DNA of 64,000 nt from a virus (Duplodnaviria > Caudoviricetes). Shown in pieces: positions 4,485 to 61,974 of the stretch. The notes beneath the pieces are model-generated. The model had not been told where the DNA came from. It did no database searches and was given only the letters and a program-made list of their open reading frames with translations. The stretch's first letter is position 1; every line of letters begins with the position of its first letter. Both the position numbers and the translations under genes were made by a program. The DNA is taken from IMG/VR virus record IMGVR_UViG_3300021387_000452. The stretch is one strand, 5' to 3'.

Positions 4485-4919
4485 TTAGTAATTTGCTGAT
4501 GTTGCGTCAAATCTATTTGACGTTATAATAAACTGCGCGCTGTTATAAAATCTAACTACAGACTCTGCTGAAGATTTAGCTGTTTCATAGCCAGCGATTA
4601 GAGCTACACACTCAGCCTTCACATTAGTAAAGCTCTTAATATACTGAGACTTTACATTATATTGCTCTCTACTTTCTGGATTCATTAGCTCGTTTAATGC
4701 CTTTACTATCATAGCATTAGCATACTGTAGCTTTTGAAGTGAATCGCAGATAATGTTGTATTTATATGTTGCTTCAGAAAATAACTCATAAAACTTATCT
4801 GGAGAGCTTCTAAGCTCTCTGTATGAAGGTAACGATCCGGCAGTCGGGATTATTTCCATGCTTTCAATAAGTGAAACAATATATTTGTAAACATCTTCTA
4901 TTCCAATTGGTTTTGCCAT
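4485..4919 (-). CDS. Hypothetical helical protein
   Basis: ORF tightly coupled to neighbours. Confidence 0.5.
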   Translation of the reverse strand: MAKPIGIEDVYKYIVSLIESMEIIPTAGSLPSYRELRSSPDKFYELFSEATYKYNIICDSLQKLQYANAMIVKALNELMNPESREQYNVKSQYIKSFTNVKAECVALIAGYETAKSSAESVVRFYNSAQFIITSNRFDATSANY

Positions 4920-34532: not shown

Positions 34533-34562
34533 ATCTCTAAACAGATAAACAGGTTAAACAAG

Positions 34563-34635
34563 TGCCCCAAGAAAGACTCGAACTTCCGACCGCCGCATTA
34601 CAGGTGCGATGCTCTACCAACTGAGCTATTAGGGC
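34563..34635 (-). tRNA. tRNA-Thr(TGT), C33 variant
   Basis: Cloverleaf; stem TCGCA/TGCGG, loop CCTGTAA. Confidence 0.9.
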
Positions 34636-34638
34636 AAA

Positions 34639-34727
34639 CGAAGAGAGTAGGATTCGAACCTACGGTACGGTGTAACCCGTACGACTGAATAGCAATCAGT
34701 TGCCTTCAACCACTCGGCCATCTCTTC
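34639..34727 (-). tRNA. tRNA-Ser(GCT)
   Basis: Long variable arm; ACTGA-TTGCTAT-TCAGT. Confidence 0.92.
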
Positions 34728-34731
34728 ACGA

Positions 34732-34815
34732 TGTCAGCAGAGAGACTCGAACTCTCAAGCCTTTCGGCGGCAGCTTCTAAGACTGCTGCGTTTACCCAAG
34801 TTTCGCCATGCTGAC
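34732..34815 (-). tRNA. tRNA-Leu(TAG)
   Basis: GCAGT-CTTAGAA-GCTGC; long variable arm. Confidence 0.92.
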
Positions 34816-34820
34816 ATAAA

Positions 34821-34907
34821 TGGGCGTGGAAGGACTCGAACCTTCTTCTCCGAATGCATCTCTGCATTCCTCGCGAGAGGTGTTTTACCAAGATAAACTA
34901 CACGTCC
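34821..34907 (-). ncRNA. tRNA-like RNA with non-canonical anticodon arm
   Basis: Acceptor, D and T arms present; centre is CCTC-TCGC-GAGG plus AATGCA-GAGA-TGCATT. Confidence 0.7.
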
Positions 34908-34909
34908 TA

Positions 34910-34981
34910 TTGTGAGTATTGGATTCGAACCAATTCTATGAGTGTATGAGGCTCATGTGCTAACCATTACACCAACTCACA
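34910..34981 (-). tRNA. tRNA-Met/Ile2(CAT)
   Basis: Loop CTCATAC; C31-A39 mismatch. Confidence 0.8.
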
Positions 34982-34988
34982 TTATAAA

Positions 34989-35089
34989 TCTGGCTGCTGG
35001 GATTCGAACCCAAAACCTCTGATCCCTTAAATTAATTTAAGGTGACTATCTCATCAGTGTTCTGTTATCATGTTTTAAACTACAGCCCA
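34989..35089 (-). ncRNA. tRNA-like RNA with a hairpin inserted in the anticodon loop
   Basis: CTGAT/ATCAG stem encloses GAGATAGTCA plus CCTTAAAT-TA-ATTTAAGG; T-arm TTGGG-TTCGAAT-CCCAG. Confidence 0.7.
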
Positions 35090-35093
35090 TAAG

Positions 35094-35165
35094 ATGGAGA
35101 ATATCAGAATCGAACTGATGTCTATAGAATGCAAATCTATTGTTCTCCCGCTGAACTAATTCCCC
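35094..35165 (-). tRNA. tRNA-Ala(TGC)
   Basis: G3-U70; ATAGA-TTTGCAT-TCTAT. Confidence 0.92.
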
Positions 35166-35279
35166 ATAAAAGACGGAGGTGTTATTTAGATAGCAGTTCT
35201 ATTTCAACTACAGGGCACACACCTGAAACCTCTTTGTTGGTTAGCCTCGCCAACATTGCCCGATTTGAACGGGACTTGA

Positions 35280-35352
35280 CGGGAAATGTAGGACTCGAAC
35301 CTACGACTCCGGACTTAACAGGACCGTGTTCTACCGACTGAACTAATTTCCC
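35280..35352 (-). tRNA. tRNA-Asn(GTT)
   Basis: CGGTC-CTGTTAA-GTCCG. Confidence 0.9.
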
Positions 35353-35356
35353 ATAA

Positions 35357-35429
35357 TAGCGGGAGCTGGATTCGAACCAACGATCTCTGGGTTATGGGCC
35401 CAGAATGTTAACCACTACACTATCCCGCA
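35357..35429 (-). tRNA. Initiator tRNA-fMet(CAT), C33 variant
   Basis: Unpaired 1:72; GGG/CCC in the anticodon stem; loop CCCATAA. Confidence 0.88.
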
Positions 35430-35517
35430 ATAAGATAAATAAACACCTGTTTAACGATACAGGCAATCGGGGTTATTTAGTCCTCAAACAATCGGACATG
35501 TCGTATCCCAACGGCAA

Positions 35518-35589
35518 TAGCGGATGACAGAGTCGAACTGTCTTAAAGAGTTTATAAGACTCACGTAATAACCGGTATACGAATCCGCT
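35518..35589 (-). tRNA. tRNA-Ile(TAT)
   Basis: GAGT-CTTATAA-ACTC; acceptor AGCGGAT/ATCCGCT, A73. Confidence 0.85.
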
Positions 35590-35594
35590 GTAAA

Positions 35595-35669
35595 TCGGAG
35601 TGGCGAGACTTGCACTCACAAACCTCCCGGACCCAAACCGGGCGCTCTACTAAATTGAGCTACACTCCG
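35595..35669 (-). tRNA. tRNA-Pro(TGG)
   Basis: CCCGG-TTTGGGT-CCGGG; C1-G72. Confidence 0.92.
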
Positions 35670-35674
35670 ATAAA

Positions 35675-35747
35675 TACACCATGAAAGACTCGAACTTTCG
35701 ACCCACGGCTTAGAAGGCCGTTGCACTTCCAACTGTGCTAATGGTGC
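35675..35747 (-). tRNA. tRNA-Arg(TCT)
   Basis: ACGGC-CTTCTAA-GCCGT. Confidence 0.92.
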
Positions 35748-35875
35748 AAATAGATATTATCATAATCTCACGATTATTAACACCCTAATAATCCACTTAG
35801 AAAAACACTAAACATACTCACTTTCATTGTTGCCAATTCCAGTGAGTTCTATATAGGTAACCAGTCTATATAGAA

Positions 35876-35959
35876 TGCTTCAACAGAGACTCGAACTCTG
35901 ACGCCACTTAAGGCAATGGCTTCTAAGACCATTATGTCTACCAATTTCATCACTGAAGC
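35876..35959 (-). tRNA. tRNA-Leu(TAG), second divergent copy
   Basis: ATGGT-CTTAGAA-GCCAT. Confidence 0.9.
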
Positions 35960-35963
35960 ATAA

Positions 35964-36036
35964 TGGAGAAGTGTAGGAATCGAACCTACGACCTACGGAT
36001 TACTCTCCGCAACTCTACCACTAAGCTAACTTCCCC
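35964..36036 (-). ncRNA. tRNA-like RNA with 6-nt anticodon loop and 8-bp acceptor
   Basis: GCGGA-GAGTAA-TCCGT; GGGGAAGT/ACTTCTCC; normal D and T arms. Confidence 0.7.
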
Positions 36037-36211
36037 AAAAGGAGCGGGCCAAATTTTATTTCACAACAATACTTAACCCTAGCAGAACATGACATGAAAA
36101 TGGAAGAATGTTGATTCTCGACAACATTGATCTCATTTATATTATACATAACTTAGAAAGAGAATGCAACTAAATTATGCATAATCTTATCATCTCATTT
36201 AAAGATGATAA

Positions 36212-36284
36212 ACAGGCCACAGAGGATTCGAACCTCTATCCTCGGTTTTGGAGACCGAGATGCTGAACCATTACACCAGCAACC
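36212..36284 (-). tRNA. tRNA-Trp(CCA)
   Basis: TCGGT-CTCCAAA-ACCGA. Confidence 0.92.
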
Positions 36285-36286
36285 TA

Positions 36287-36360
36287 TGGTTCCGTGAACA
36301 GGAATTGCACCTATACTGGCGGAGTCAAAGTCCGCTGTTCTACTATTAAACTATCACGAA
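36287..36360 (-). tRNA. tRNA-Gln(TTG)
   Basis: GCGGA-CTTTGAC-TCCGC; encoded CCA. Confidence 0.9.
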
Positions 36361-36364
36361 GTAA

Positions 36365-36436
36365 TTCCGGGAGCTGGAATCGAACCAACATTAACTGGGT
36401 CAGAGCCAGTCGTCCTAGCCATTAAACGATCCCGAA
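36365..36436 (-). tRNA. tRNA-Gln(CTG)
   Basis: ACTGG-CTCTGAC-CCAGT. Confidence 0.9.
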
Positions 36437-36574
36437 GTAAAGGCTAAATTTTATCTCACGACAATATTTAGCCATGAGGAGCAAAAATTAGAGCAATCAG
36501 TTTGTAGTGCTGTCTTGTTCTAACATATTTAATATACATAATCAAATCAGCAATTTAACTAAATTGATATGTAT

Positions 36575-37270
36575 TTTGACTATCCCCAGGAGCATGAGAA
36601 TTCTTGATTTACATCTACTCTCATTCGAGAACTCAGCTTTATTCCTTCACGAGATAATCTTATAAATCTGATGCCTCACCTTAATTGGCAATCCGGATTA
36701 TCACCCACTAGTAAATGACCTCTAGAAAGTCTCCTAGCTGTTAAAGGACTACTCGTTCGAATAGTAGGTGTTCCAAGTACAGAATTACCTATATCACTAT
36801 AGGTTGCCATAATCCTAAGCGGCCGTGTACTTAAGTCCCATACAGGAATCATGGTCTTTTTTTTGAATCTCATGTTTGAGCATTATTCAAATCACAGAAT
36901 AAGAGGCTTAGAGATTACTCTATAAATATCTTACTGTGTGCTGTTACGCCAAAGTGGAGTGCAATCCTTACCAGTTACGGGGTGATTGCCTACTTCAATC
37001 GGAGTGACCAATAACCTATATACCATTATACTTCACTCTGTCAATTTGGTATATAACCTGATCCGCCTTAATCAGCCGTTGCACTTCTCGTAATGCAGTG
37101 TTTAGTTCTGCCCGAGGTTTGCAATTCTGTAAGATTTATCGCGAATAAATCTGGAATATGTGACCTTTAAGCGTTCTACATCTTGGTAGATATAGAATCA
37201 GGATATATGCTATTGGCGATTGCCACACTCATTAAGGATGGGTGCTTCTAACCCAACCACAATAAGATTT
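36575..37270 (-). ncRNA. Large structured ncRNA (GOLLD/ROOL-like candidate) with a 23S rRNA H43/H44-like domain
   Basis: ~700 nt with no credible ORF inside the tRNA cluster; GTTGGGTTAGAAGCACCCATCCTTAATGAG and GGCGTAACAGC; long-range stems. Confidence 0.7.
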
Positions 37271-37272
37271 AA

Positions 37273-37360
37273 TACCAGTGGAGAGACTCGAACTCTCAAG
37301 TAACGCCATGTTACGCGCCGATTTTGAGTCGACTGCCTTTGCCGATTTGGCTACACTGGC
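37273..37360 (-). tRNA. tRNA-Leu(CAA)
   Basis: GTCGA-CTCAAAA-TCGGC; long variable arm. Confidence 0.92.
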
Positions 37361-37364
37361 TCAA

Positions 37365-37446
37365 TGCGAGAAGTGGGAATCGAACCCACAAGCCAAATGG
37401 CGTAGCATTTTAAGTGCTATGTGTTTACCAATTTCACCATTCTCGC
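37365..37446 (-). tRNA. tRNA-Leu(TAA)
   Basis: TAGCA-CTTAAAA-TGCTA. Confidence 0.92.
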
Positions 37447-37451
37447 AAAAC

Positions 37452-37547
37452 CATAGTATGAAAGGCACGACTCTCACGTACTGCCAAGCTCCAATTGCTA
37501 CCCCATCCCGGTTTAGACAACTGGTTTGCCAAGCTCCCATACTATAG
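37452..37547 (-). ncRNA. Candidate small RNA
   Basis: Terminal stem TATAGTATG/CATACTATG; internal direct repeat GGAGCTTGGCA x2. Confidence 0.45.
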
Positions 37548-37555
37548 TTAGTTAA

Positions 37556-37719
37556 CAAGTCATTTCCATTACCATACGTTAGGACTTTTTCAGGCTCTAC
37601 GTTCTGTTACTCTATTACATTCAACCGTCTTACGTATATGCACCTTGTGCACCAAATACATACAGTGGGCGATGTGTATTCTTTACCATGCAGACTAGCT
37701 CTTCGTAGCAATGACTTGT
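37556..37719 (-). ncRNA. Candidate ~165-nt RNA
   Basis: 10-bp terminal stem ACAAGTCATT/AATGACTTGT, between tRNA genes. Confidence 0.45.
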
Positions 37720-37721
37720 AA

Positions 37722-37799
37722 TGGAAAATGAAAGAATCGAACTTTTCATCTAACGACCCAATAAAGGGTCGGTTATTTTACCAGTTAAACTAATTTTCC
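37722..37799 (-). ncRNA. tRNA-like RNA with extended anticodon stem
   Basis: GGAAAAT/ATTTTCC acceptor; CGACCC-TTTATT-GGGTCG arm; bulged T stem. Confidence 0.7.
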
Positions 37800-37804
37800 A
37801 TAAA

Positions 37805-37976
37805 TGAGAAATGTAGGATTTGAACCTACTCCTTTCATGGCATCTAATATAATTCCTATAATTGTGTTAATCCTGAACTTATAGAGAAGTGACTCTCTAC
37901 TCGGGAATTGAACCCGACCAATTATAGGTATTAGTTTATAGCTTCATGAATATTCTACCAACTAAACTAATTTCAC
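37805..37976 (-). ncRNA. Two-headed tRNA-like RNA (circularly permuted tRNA nested in the anticodon arm)
   Basis: Outer D/T/acceptor arms, long connecting helix, inner T-arm, capped acceptor and D-arm. Confidence 0.75.
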
Positions 37977-37980
37977 ATAA

Positions 37981-38064
37981 TGGAGAGGGGAAGATTCGAA
38001 CTTCCGAAGCCTTTCGGCGCAGAATTTACAGTCCTGACCTGTTGACCGCTTAGGTAACCTCTCC
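37981..38064 (-). tRNA. tRNA-Tyr(GTA)
   Basis: CAGGA-CTGTAAA-TTCTG; long variable arm. Confidence 0.92.
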
Positions 38065-38091
38065 AAGCAAATTAAATAGATATCTTTCTTT

Positions 38092-56892: not shown

Positions 56893-58095
56893 TTACTCAC
56901 TAGCCTTAAAATTATACATAGGTTTTATGACTTCAACAATATCAATAGTGTCTTTCACTAATTCTATAATCTCTTCAGCCGGTTTGTACGCCATCGGAGA
57001 TTCATCCAGAGTGGATTCATTTACAGAAGTAGTAAATATACCTTCCATTGAGTGTTTAAAATCATCCATTGCAATCGAGTTCTTTGCCTGTTTACGAGAC
57101 ATTAACCGACCAGCACCGTGTGGCCCTGAACAGTTCCAGTCTTCGTTTCCTTTACCGATTCCTATAATAGAACCATCTCGCATGTTTAATGGAATGATTA
57201 CTTTCTCACCTTTATTACAACGAATAGCTCCTTTACGAATTATGTTATCTTCAAAGTCAATATAATTGTGAACAGTGTGGAACACTTCAACAGGTGTAAC
57301 TTTTAAGAATTCCAAGATTCGCTGCGCAATCTCTTCACGATTCTTGACAGCGTATTCCTGACATATCTTCATATCATGTAAATAATTATCTCTGTGAGCT
57401 CCTTCCAAGTAGCATAAATCATCTGGGATCTTTTGTGCTGAAGCAAACTTTTCTCGTAATTCACGAATAGCATCTTTGATCTCTTTGTGACGTAAAGCTT
57501 CTTTATACTCAGCAATCAACTGTTCAGTTTTAGCTTTTATCTCTTCAGACTTAACATTGCAATCTTCAATTGCCATCGCCTGATAATATCTGCAAACCTG
57601 CTGGCCTAAGTTACGAGATCCGGTGTGTATAACTAAATAAACATCACCTGATTCTGATTTGTTCAATTCTATGAAGTGATTGCCTCCGCCCAATGAACCA
57701 ATTGATGCATGCAAGTGTTCAACATTTCGCAACTCACGTCGCATAAATAATTTGTCTAAATCATCAAAGCCAATAGTATGAGTCACATCATTTGCTGACA
57801 TTCCTGACGGAATATTTTCATGGATGAATTTGTCTAATTCTGCCAATCGCTCATCAGATAAATTCAATTTGCCCATATTGACTACATACATTCCGCAGCC
57901 CACGTCGACGCCTACTAAGTTTGGAACTACTTTATCTCCAAGGTCAGCAGTAAATCCAATAACACAGCCTTTACCTGCATGAGTGTCCGGCATAATACGA
58001 ACTTTTGCGTCTCTAAAAACGTTAACTGACATCAGCTGTTTTAACTGATCATATACTTCTTGTTCTACAGTCTTTGCAAATATTTTTACACTCAT
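56893..58095 (-). CDS. rtcB: RtcB RNA ligase
   Basis: MPDTHAGKG, VGVDVGCG, GSLGGGNHFIE, HTGSR, HNY, SGPHGAGR, DESPMAYK. Confidence 0.95.
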   Translation of the reverse strand: MSVKIFAKTVEQEVYDQLKQLMSVNVFRDAKVRIMPDTHAGKGCVIGFTADLGDKVVPNLVGVDVGCGMYVVNMGKLNLSDERLAELDKFIHENIPSGMSANDVTHTIGFDDLDKLFMRRELRNVEHLHASIGSLGGGNHFIELNKSESGDVYLVIHTGSRNLGQQVCRYYQAMAIEDCNVKSEEIKAKTEQLIAEYKEALRHKEIKDAIRELREKFASAQKIPDDLCYLEGAHRDNYLHDMKICQEYAVKNREEIAQRILEFLKVTPVEVFHTVHNYIDFEDNIIRKGAIRCNKGEKVIIPLNMRDGSIIGIGKGNEDWNCSGPHGAGRLMSRKQAKNSIAMDDFKHSMEGIFTTSVNESTLDESPMAYKPAEEIIELVKDTIDIVEVIKPMYNFKASE

Positions 58096-58124
58096 AGGAC
58101 CCTCCCAAAGCATAAGCTATTTTG

Positions 58125-60250: not shown

Positions 60251-61420
60251 TTATCGGTGATATTTAAGAAGAAAATTTGGAGATACGCATTTGAAGTTCT
60301 GCTGACCATCTTGTGAATAGAAAACAAACCCTTCAATATCGCCATCATCGATTGCAGATTTACATGAATCTACGTAATCAACAATTTCTTCTACTGATTT
60401 TGGAATTTTATAATCATAGTCATAGACATGAACGTGTGGTAGATCTCGATCATCACAAACCTTAATCATTTCTTTAATCGGTAATCGTTTACCATCAAAC
60501 CAAATATGAAATACCACAAAGTCGTGTTTATTGTTATTCAATGAGTAATTACGTTTTTGTACTTTGTCACCGTAAGTCTCACCTTGAATTGCAACAGTCT
60601 TTAAACCATGTACAATTTTTAGAGACTTAAGCAGTTCTTTCATATTGTATTTAGCACCTGATTCAGCCCAGATATTATTTTTGAAATAGTTTCCGCCATC
60701 TGAGTCTTTCTCAGGATTCTTAATTACATTATGTGAACCAACTAAATAATTATCCTTCTCATCAAGAATAAATGATGTAGATGCACCGTCAACTTTCTCT
60801 GTAATAATATATGTATCGTCTGAACCTAGCAATTGTGGAAGATTCTGAATGCGCTCAGAGCCAGTTTTCGGCAACCACTCCGGCCACTTACATTTTGCCT
60901 TGTCCTTTTTATGAACAAAGATCTTTGAGAGTAGCCAACGAGCAAATCTGAACTTCATTGCAAATCTAATAATAGAGCTATTAAAGAATTTTTTATGACG
61001 ATCCATTGCACGTTGAAAATCATTTACTTTTTGTTTTGGCTGATTCTCACATACTGGCTCAGGATCATACTTCTCTACGTGAAGTTTATCAGTAACAAAG
61101 TCACCTTCTTTGCAGCCTTTCAGTTCTGGGAAATCAGACAATGGTAAGATTAGTCCCTGACTAACAGTCTTACACATCTTCTGCGTTAAAACGCGATACT
61201 TACGTTTTTCCATAAATGAAAAACGCTCGTCATTAGAAGGCAGAAGAGAGTCAATTTCAAAATAAACTACAAGGTCACCAACTTTAATTTCTTTTGGTGC
61301 AACACACCACCACCCAAGAACTTTACAGCTGTGTACACGATCATATCCATCAAGGTCTTTTGCCTCAGCTACTTTAACAATGTAAGCAAGTTCGCGTTCA
61401 TTAGTTTTAGGGTTTAACAT
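60251..61420 (-). CDS. ATP-dependent RNA ligase (DRB0094/Rnl2-like)
   Basis: VVYFEIDSLLP, SQGL, ERIQN, TEKVDGAS, QGETYG, EGFV, FKCVS. Confidence 0.88.
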   Translation of the reverse strand: MLNPKTNERELAYIVKVAEAKDLDGYDRVHSCKVLGWWCVAPKEIKVGDLVVYFEIDSLLPSNDERFSFMEKRKYRVLTQKMCKTVSQGLILPLSDFPELKGCKEGDFVTDKLHVEKYDPEPVCENQPKQKVNDFQRAMDRHKKFFNSSIIRFAMKFRFARWLLSKIFVHKKDKAKCKWPEWLPKTGSERIQNLPQLLGSDDTYIITEKVDGASTSFILDEKDNYLVGSHNVIKNPEKDSDGGNYFKNNIWAESGAKYNMKELLKSLKIVHGLKTVAIQGETYGDKVQKRNYSLNNNKHDFVVFHIWFDGKRLPIKEMIKVCDDRDLPHVHVYDYDYKIPKSVEEIVDYVDSCKSAIDDGDIEGFVFYSQDGQQNFKCVSPNFLLKYHR

Positions 61421-61974
61421 GTTTAATTCTCCTTTACTGAAGTCCGTCTTCAAAGTTACAGATACTAACGTTTATTTCTGTTGCCAAATCTTCTACCGCT
61501 TTTCTAGCAATTCGTAATTTATCGTAAAGACCATCACTAATATAATGTGAACTAATAGCACAATTCAATCTTAATAATGAAGACAATAAATCAGAACATA
61601 ATCTCTTTGAATCCATTAAACAAGCTATCTCGTAAGCATCTTTAATTTGCTTGTTCTGCATATTACTAATCTCCTATTGCGCCATAAGAAGCTGATCAAC
61701 GTCAGCTACGTAAGCCCATTTGAGATCTGCAATTTCTATGATGCAGTACCCGTTATCAACATCACCAACAAATGGTAGCCATTCATCACATCGAGTATAG
61801 ATCATCTCGTCACCACAAGCAAACCCGCCTTCTTCCAAGTCTGGCATACCAAGAATGAATTTGTCATAGCCATATTCACCGCCATAGGTAACATGTATTA
61901 AGCAAAGATCTTCTTTTTCAGGGAGATGATTTTTACGATCGTTCCATTTCATTTTTAAGTCTCCTTTTAAGTTT

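Follow-up and report, generated by a model that had tools for sequence, protein, structure and literature searches.

Within a 64,000-nucleotide (nt) stretch of viral DNA (IMG/VR record IMGVR_UViG_3300021387_000452; the whole stretch is called the window here), positions 37268-36928 of the minus strand, about 341 nt, probably constitute the gene for a stand-alone non-coding RNA whose ends fold into a copy of the GTPase-associated centre of 23S ribosomal RNA (rRNA). That this RNA, called the mimic below, belongs to a family of phage RNAs and imitates the fold of the centre is a conclusion we hold with high confidence. A split mimic of the centre had been proposed in the first-pass annotation of the window, and this proposal was borne out: the sequences lie where it had placed them, and a covariance model derived from other phages matches both halves.

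The centre comprises the top of helix 42 (H42) together with H43 and H44 (Escherichia coli 23S positions 1051-1108, the numbering used below), and the mimic has the same secondary structure. The corresponding 58-nt rRNA fragment binds ribosomal protein uL11 and thiostrepton, and uL11 binds the isolated fragment on its own. In the window, the 21-mer GUUGGGUUAGAAGCACCCAUC (37257-37237) is identical to an E. coli-type 23S segment (L105) at 19 of 21 bases. The two mismatches represent both sides of the 1064-1074 pair, at which C-G is changed to G-C; the compensatory swap in H43 that had been noted before was thus confirmed. A G-C pair at 1064-1074 is rare in the family, and the sole other case observed is member L136. 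The H44-like sequence GCGUAACAGC is located 280 nt downstream of the H43 piece (36949-36940), and over GCGUAACAGCAC 10 of 12 bases are as in rRNA. An outer helix of 9 bp, AUCUUAUUG(UG) / (CA)CAGUAAGAU, joins 37268-37260 with 36936-36928 and is the covarying closing helix of the family.

Family members were retrieved from IMG/VR with sequence patterns. An exact search with the window's own H43 17-mer yielded six loci, all of which were unrelated and apparently coding. With the swapped pair left free, the pattern TTGGNTTAGAAGCANCCAT yielded 116 IMG/VR loci, just three of which were real 23S genes. For 80 unique non-rRNA matches to the H43 pattern enough downstream sequence was available, and 63 of them contained GGCGUAnnAGCAC at a distance of 60-350 nt downstream. 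Since the query did not contain GGCGUAnnAGCAC, each half was recovered independently of the other. Searching in the opposite direction with the 3' word TTGGCGTANNAGCACAC yielded at least 120 loci and added members with a different H43 and compensatory changes (GUUAGC..GCUAUC, GGA..UCC). In total, at least 134 non-redundant family members were collected.

From 5' to 3', the RNA consists of the 5' strand of helix P1 (H42-like), GG, H43 (1057-1081), yUAArG (1082-1087), A1088 and GU, followed by helix P2 around the insert, UU, U1089, G, GC-GUAnnA-GC, A1101, C1102, A, CC and the 3' strand of P1. Common to the members are the closing helix, the H43-like hairpin, a UAAnGAGU junction, a hypervariable insert after A1088, and the H44-like piece UUUGGCGUAnnAGCACA. 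All five hallmarks of the family were found in the window, namely the H43 hairpin with the 9-nt loop UUAGAAGCA, the junction with P2, UUUGGCGUAnnAGCACA at 36953-36937, P1, and the same orientation as the neighbouring transfer RNA (tRNA) genes. The inserts are up to 334 nt long (median 126.5 nt) and are without common sequence, whereas the core is nearly invariant. The motif CACCCCGUAACUGGUAAGG recurs in 29 of 134 inserts, with G.U, G-C and U-A as alternatives in its 3-bp stem. RNA sizes across the family range from about 105 to about 430 nt, and minimal members, e.g. L132 (positions 196-300, about 105 nt), contain little beyond the centre itself and a short hairpin. In some members a second insertion was observed, an extra hairpin within the 3' strand of H43, after GCCAU and near 1078-1079 (L036, L044, L052, L059, L064, L076, L086, L093, L130, L181, L183, L204 and L212).

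A covariance model (R1) was built from an alignment (A1) of 32 diverse members with short inserts, from which the window copy was excluded, and was searched over 64 kb on both strands. R1 matched the window at only two sites, 37273-37202 (33.6 bits, E-value 5.8e-11) and 37055-36923 (38.7 bits, E-value 7.3e-13). These are the two halves of the mimic, in the correct order on the minus strand, and they were matched separately because the 265-nt insert lies between them. The parts of the mimic are as follows:

37260..37268, minus strand: 5' strand of P1, the H42-like closing helix, AUCUUAUUG; pairs with 36936-36928 and lies within the model match 37273-37202.
37235..37259, minus strand: H43-like hairpin, equivalent of 23S 1057-1081, UG GUUGGG UUAGAAGCA CCCAUC CU; from the sequence and the model (E-value 5.8e-11).
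37227..37234, minus strand: junction UAAUGAGU, equivalent of 23S 1083-1088 including G1087 and A1088; from the model alignment.
37223..37226, minus strand: 5' strand of P2, GUGG, which closes the insert; pairs with CCAC (36957-36954) in the register given by family covariation.
36958..37222, minus strand: variable insert of 265 nt between A1088 and the 5' strand of H44; hypervariable among relatives.
36966..36984, minus strand: recurrent insert motif CACCCCGUAACUGGUAAGG, a small hairpin between CC and UAAGG, just ahead of the 3' strand of P2.
36954..36957, minus strand: 3' strand of P2, CCAC; from family covariation and the model alignment.
36937..36953, minus strand: H44-like piece UUUGGCGUAACAGCACA, equivalent of 23S 1089-1103; model match of 38.7 bits, E-value 7.3e-13.
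36928..36936, minus strand: 3' strand of P1, CAGUAAGAU; from covariation, the model and the sequence.

The structure of the family is underscored by covariation. In A1, 86.4% of the cells were paired, compared to 64.6% in shuffles. The covariation score was 0.578 versus 0.153 in shuffles, none of 500 shuffles reached the observed value, and slid controls gave at most 0.18. Double-sided changes were found in 11 of 11 P1 pairs, in 5 of 5 P2 pairs, and in three H43 pairs. The pair 1082-1086 is U-A 18 times and C-G 12 times in A1, and nucleotide 1056 tracks it in the 82 regular members (G with U-A in 40, A with C-G in 27, other combinations in 15). Judged from these sequences, positions 1056, 1082 and 1086 appear to behave like an rRNA-type base triple, and the covariation of 1056 with the pair indicates that tertiary structure, beyond the helices, is under selection.

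Conservation at single positions was quantified in 49 members that had been retrieved by the 3' motif alone. G1059, U1060, G1063, U1066, C1072, C1075 and C1079 are invariant (49/49), G1071 and A1077 are present in 48 of the 49, and positions 1061, 1067, 1068, 1070 and 1078 vary. In A1, G1087, A1088 and the pairs G1091-C1100 and C1092-G1099 are invariant, as is GGCGUA..AGCAC. G1093, U1094, A1095 and A1098 are likewise invariant in the mimic, and 1096-1097 vary freely.

The first-pass annotation had also proposed that a large domain is inserted at the H44 bulge and is brought together by two long-range helices. The family covariation supports the insertion and its closure by a long-range helix. 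The outer of the two helices, AUCUUAUUG/CAGUAAGAU, covaries as described above, but the register of the inner one, GAGUGUGG/UUGCACUC, had to be revised. That helix can be drawn, but covariation places P2 directly between GAGU and UUUGG, here as GUGG/CCAC. It was rejected because its pairing would consume the invariant G1087 and A1088.

The loops of the mimic (UUAGAAGCA; GUAAnA) are nearly identical to those of the 23S centre, and U1060, A1088, G1071, C1072, the 1091-1100 and 1092-1099 pairs, and the 1082-1086/1056 covariation are retained. For one family member, the Rfam model of bacterial large-subunit (LSU) rRNA, LSU_rRNA_bacteria, was matched at 1084-1153 with 31.4 bits and an E-value of 1.2e-6, which is below the gathering score and is an independent statement of the resemblance to rRNA. 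In contrast to the 23S centre, the mimic stands free in phage genomes outside of any rRNA, and the family carries a variable domain after A1088 that is flanked by GU and UU. Furthermore, U1101 is replaced by A, a U is present at 1089, and the H42 part is merely a generic helix. The window copy differs from 23S additionally in the swapped 1064-1074 pair and in the absence of nucleotide 1056. Its junction UAAUGAGU represents a shorter subfamily form, without nucleotide 1056 and with one junction base fewer, that is also present in L041, L063, L074, L092 and L095. Contiguous LSU rRNA beyond 1051-1108 was not found in the window; the flanks are tRNAs, and the 265-nt insert splits the domain.

The family is not restricted to metagenomic sequences. 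Full-length model matches were obtained in the cultured phages Cronobacter GAP32 (289508-289765, 88.1 bits), Aeromonas 4_4572 (75074-75371, 87.9 bits) and Xanthomonas XacN1 (85.1 bits), and each of these copies lies within an unannotated gap. Candidate 5' halves, detected with blastn only, were found in Pectobacterium CBB, Serratia BF, Erwinia SNUABM phages, Ralstonia RSP15, Pseudomonas pf16, Milchi and Astolliot, Acinetobacter ME3, a Vibrio phage, and Paenibacillus Pd_22F. A scan of bacterial assemblies with a 17-mer of the 3' motif yielded mostly chance matches, with about 10 real members among the at least 120 matches listed; the real copies were found in Clostridia, Ruminococcus, Acidimicrobiales, Neisseriaceae and Bdellovibrio-like assemblies. 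No Rfam 15 family was matched at gathering score by 14 family loci, and no description of the family was found in the searchable literature. The mimics thus form a large and widespread phage RNA family that is new relative to Rfam 15 and the searchable literature.

Members are frequently located close to tRNA genes. A tRNA is present at a distance of at most 1 kb for 79 of 133 IMG/VR members, 40 loci are without a tRNA, and all tRNAs within 2 kb (413 of 413) are on the same strand as the member. A shared neighbouring protein family was not found when the open reading frames (ORFs) within 3 kb of 134 members were clustered; the largest cluster had nine members, all of which were close relatives. 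Because no protein gene is a conserved neighbour, the mimic is not the leader of a particular gene. This sets it apart from the leaders of ribosomal protein operons (the L10 leader RF00557 and the L1, L20, S8 and S15 sites), which likewise imitate protein-binding sites of rRNA outside of the ribosome. These leaders are loose, cis-regulatory mimics in messenger RNAs upstream of the genes that they regulate, whereas the phage mimic is nearly exact and has its own RNA gene. The L10(L12)4 site adjoins this same 23S region, and no match to the mimic was obtained with the ribosomal protein leader models of Rfam (L10_leader and others).

GOLLD (RF01998-type) and ROOL, two large ornate RNAs of unknown function from phages and prophages, are often located in tRNA islands and share the niche of the mimic (PMC12286853). 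ROOL, like the window, stems from the rumen. Membership in one of these two classes had been considered before on the basis of size and context. It did not withstand the Rfam search: LSU, GOLLD and ROOL were matched neither at gathering score in the window nor at an E-value of up to 10 on 36400-37300, so that GOLLD or ROOL identity is not supported. Unlike GOLLD and ROOL, the core of the mimic is a copy of an rRNA domain, and no model match was found at gathering score for the 14 family loci mentioned above. Multimeric cages are a further point of comparison with GOLLD and ROOL, and there is no evidence for them in the case of the mimic.

The window has a G+C content of about 35%, all of its genes are on the minus strand, and the sequencing runs that contain it originate from bovine gut and rumen. 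It belongs to an uncultured rumen phage that encodes RtcB (56893-58113), an RNA ligase (60251-61453), DNA methyltransferases and thymidylate synthase. In 50,697 phage records no close relative was found; RtcB reached an identity of at most 51%, so that no close phage could be aligned. A search for related loci with the flanking 300-amino-acid protein also revealed no relative. The tRNA cluster in which the RNA had been placed was recovered with ARAGORN as 20 minus-strand genes at 34562-38065. The mimic lies in a tRNA-free gap of 836 nt (36437-37272) between tRNA-Leu(CAA) and tRNA-Gln(CUG). When the whole gap was compared by blastn with the 50,697 phage records, just one 77-nt chance match was obtained. 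The gap as a whole is folded more stably than shuffles (z-score -4.69). No promoter- or terminator-like sites were found on the minus strand within the gap, and a terminator is present 3' of the tRNA array at 34501-34481. Three tRNA-like genes of the array (34821-34907, 35964-36036 and 37721-37800; ARAGORN) have irregular anticodon loops with 2- or 4-base 'anticodons'. The remaining features in and next to the gap are:

37273..37360, minus strand: tRNA-Leu(CAA) (ARAGORN; Rfam tRNA 52.5 bits), with its 3' end 4 nt ahead of the closing helix of the mimic.
36590..36919, minus strand: module B, a second conserved structured RNA outside of the mimic; 87-96% identity to L007, L008 and L009, and covered by RNA contigs.
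36437..36589, minus strand: A+U-rich rest of the gap up to tRNA-Gln(CUG); nothing of note in Rfam.

Transcription of the gap was analyzed using metatranscriptome contigs, which cover 36581-37097 in three studies and thus include the 3' two-thirds of the mimic. Contigs from X3 (36618-37097) and X4 (36730-37082) are both 100% identical to the window, and X19, which represents a relative, contains contigs at 36581-36919 and 36924-37068. RNA cover is patchy across the 2.3 kb that were compared, and its depths are unequal. Together with a circular junction that is found in RNA only (see below), this makes carry-over of DNA unlikely. The X19 contigs break at 36919/36924, just 3' of P1, and have depths of 63 and 5.5; the break weakly suggests that the mimic and the RNA that follows are separated by processing. 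DNA of relatives keeps 37222-37268 and 36581-37068 and skips 37068-37171, 37068-37207 or 37068-37222. Because the relatives replace 37068-37222, the insert is variable even in close kin.

Originally, the region had been described as a single RNA of about 700 nt. This part of the first-pass annotation did not hold, because the 3'-terminal 330 nt constitute a module of their own, module B, that is found without the mimic in other phages. In the IMG/VR contigs L007-L009, which lack the mimic, module B (4741-4889 and 5310-5510 in L007) is split by a segment of about 420 nt with a 95-amino-acid ORF, and the other 133 mimics are without module B. A compensatory change was found in module B (CCUAUAG..AUAUAGG versus CCCAUAG..AUAUGGG), and no Rfam family matched it. 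Judged from these comparisons, the gap is composed of at least two RNA modules, the mimic of about 341 nt and module B. The first hairpin of module B (36915-36866) resembles Rfam abiF (RF03085) with 25.9 bits and an E-value of 0.034, below the gathering score of 37. The hairpin has the loop consensus AAGCCUCU...GCUCAAA and a deviating stem, and there is no abiF gene in the vicinity. It may represent a phage-encoded copy of an RNA that is associated with defence. A pattern scan of IMG/VR for abiF-like hairpins was dominated by chance matches, with a handful of convincing stems; hairpins with the same loop and G+C-rich stems were observed in the viral contigs L371, L381, L424, L426 and L449.

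Further RNAs were observed in the spacers of the array. A candidate circular RNA of 275 nt (37447-37721, minus strand) is the exact spacer between the odd tRNA (Rfam 37799-37722) and tRNA-Leu(UAA) (Rfam 37446-37365). Its contigs from two studies, X3 and X4, are 305 nt long (275 + k-1) and cyclic, with different break points and depths of 31.7 and 11.3. The joint of 37721 to 37447 is common to X3 and X4 and is absent from the DNA run that was compared. The ends of the candidate circle fit RNase Z and RNase P products, and its fold has a z-score of -2.3. In addition, a 171-nt RNA contig from X3 with 100% identity corresponds to the spacer 36047-36217 between the tRNA at 35964-36036 and tRNA-Trp (36212-36286). 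Thus, several spacers of the array seem to yield stable RNAs.

For the function of the mimic, we propose an off-ribosome decoy or sponge for uL11, a proposal derived from the conserved sequence features and, in our estimate, close to an even call. The mimic would be co-transcribed with the tRNA operon, and its 5' end would be released when the adjacent tRNA is processed. The ends, joined by the closing helix, would rebuild the uL11-binding centre, with the variable domain projecting from the H44 strand after A1088. Folded like the rRNA domain, the RNA would then bind the recognisers of this domain, primarily uL11 that is free or being exchanged. Possible effects include ribosomes that are short of uL11, weaker activation of RelA, and altered recruitment of factors. 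In the ribosome, U1060-A1088 contacts uL11 directly, and the C-terminal domain of uL11 lies in the minor groove of the 1067 stem (PMC2175356). Given that U1060-A1088 is kept and that the tertiary structure covaries, binding of uL11 by the mimic is plausible. Among possible ligands uL11 is the best candidate, because it binds the isolated fragment, the contact pair is invariant, and the freest positions (1061, 1067, 1096-1097) are not determinants of the fold or of uL11 binding. Ribosomes without uL11, as in rplK mutants, are relaxed for RelA, and it is a speculation by analogy that a uL11 sponge might generate such relaxed, uL11-less ribosomes.

Several points weigh against this interpretation. 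A1067, a contact of factors and thiopeptides, is kept in just 37 of the 49 unbiased members, i.e. about a quarter vary. The window copy is without nucleotide 1056 and one junction base, and thus one tertiary contact of the rRNA is altered. The minimum-free-energy fold of the single sequence fails to recover H43, and the comparative model alone does so. No RNA contig covers 37098-37272, the half with the H43-like hairpin, which is not readable as non-expression and which limits the evidence for transcription to the 3' part of the mimic. The insert is next to A1088, near the contact with uL11, where it might hinder binding. In addition, most of the cellular uL11 resides in ribosomes, so that a sponge would need exchange or new synthesis.

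The main rival to the uL11 sponge is a decoy or sponge for agents that attack the GTPase centre (ADP-ribosyltransferases, nucleases, methyltransferases, thiopeptides); it would protect the ribosomes of the host and form a counter-defence island with the tRNAs. We regard this as unlikely. In its favour, phage tRNA arrays are usually interpreted as modules for repair or counter-defence, and here the array belongs to a phage with RtcB and an RNA ligase, and an abiF-like hairpin opens the adjacent module B. To our knowledge, no anti-phage defence is aimed at H43/H44. Toxins for this site do exist, as Tre23 ADP-ribosylates H44 at 1095-1098 and blocks the GTPase activity of EF-G (PMC8661411). The invariance of G1093, U1094, A1095 and A1098 in the mimic would fit such an attacker, whereas the free variation of 1096-1097 would not. 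Moreover, the hosts across the family are very different, so that the threat would need to be very widespread, and a stoichiometric decoy would be up against tens of thousands of ribosomes. Alternatively, the RNA, probably loaded with uL11, might trap the factors that dock at the centre (EF-G, EF-Tu, IF2, RF3, RelA), and would be aimed at a factor or at the stringent response rather than at uL11. The near-rRNA loops in phages of distant hosts exceed the needs of folding alone, and activation of RelA depends on uL11, both of which would be in line with a trap. However, binding of factors to the centre is weak when the sarcin-ricin loop and the L7/L12 stalk are missing, and a sarcin-ricin-like stretch (at most two substitutions) occurs in just 2 of 134 inserts, while the best stretch in the window has 4 mismatches in 13. 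As A1067 is also variable, we consider a factor trap improbable.

Still lower is the probability we assign to the possibility that the rRNA-like core is a mere folding scaffold with the function residing in the insert, or that a single giant RNA of the GOLLD/ROOL type occupies all 836 nt of the gap. The 265-nt insert contains a motif that recurs in 29 of 134 members, the X3 and X4 contigs extend from the mimic into module B, and the z-score of the gap fold is -4.69. On the other hand, the inserts vary to 334 nt without common sequence around a nearly invariant core, and minimal members exist with just a short hairpin. A giant RNA is further contradicted by the occurrence of module B without the mimic and, in all other loci, of the mimic without module B, by the absence of a GOLLD or ROOL match at an E-value of up to 10, and by the break of the X19 contigs where the mimic and module B adjoin, with depths of 63 and 5.5. 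Finally, the similarity to 23S extends over just about 60 nt, and the window copy gives no LSU match at an E-value of up to 10, as might be expected for a chance resemblance or a dead fragment of captured rRNA. The probability of this explanation is negligible in view of the model E-values (6e-11 and 7e-13), the hundreds of members in which compensatory changes and a conserved insertion site are found, and the lack of flanking rRNA; chance and dead rRNA are refuted by family retrieval, covariation and model matches.

A near-exact, covarying copy of a ribosomal centre that hundreds of phages carry as an RNA gene of its own is not among the RNA classes of Rfam 15 or of the searchable literature. 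In this phage, the spacers of the tRNA array seem to be packed with distinct stable RNAs rather than being junk. If uL11 or other ligands are bound, RNA mimicry by phages would act on translation or the stringent response, and the mimic would represent a compact, naturally occurring variant, tolerant of insertions, of an RNA fold that has been studied extensively. It is possible, although rather unlikely, that many large phages use a free RNA replica of the uL11/GTPase docking site against translation control or ribosome-aimed immunity. If this is true, uL11 would be drained so that RelA cannot raise ppGpp, or toxins would be soaked up, and the mimics would constitute a new RNA-based class of takeover or counter-defence. 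The mimic would then share an RNA island with the tRNAs, the abiF-like RNA and the circular spacer RNA. As the carriers GAP32, 4_4572 and XacN1 are in culture, the function of the mimic is directly testable.

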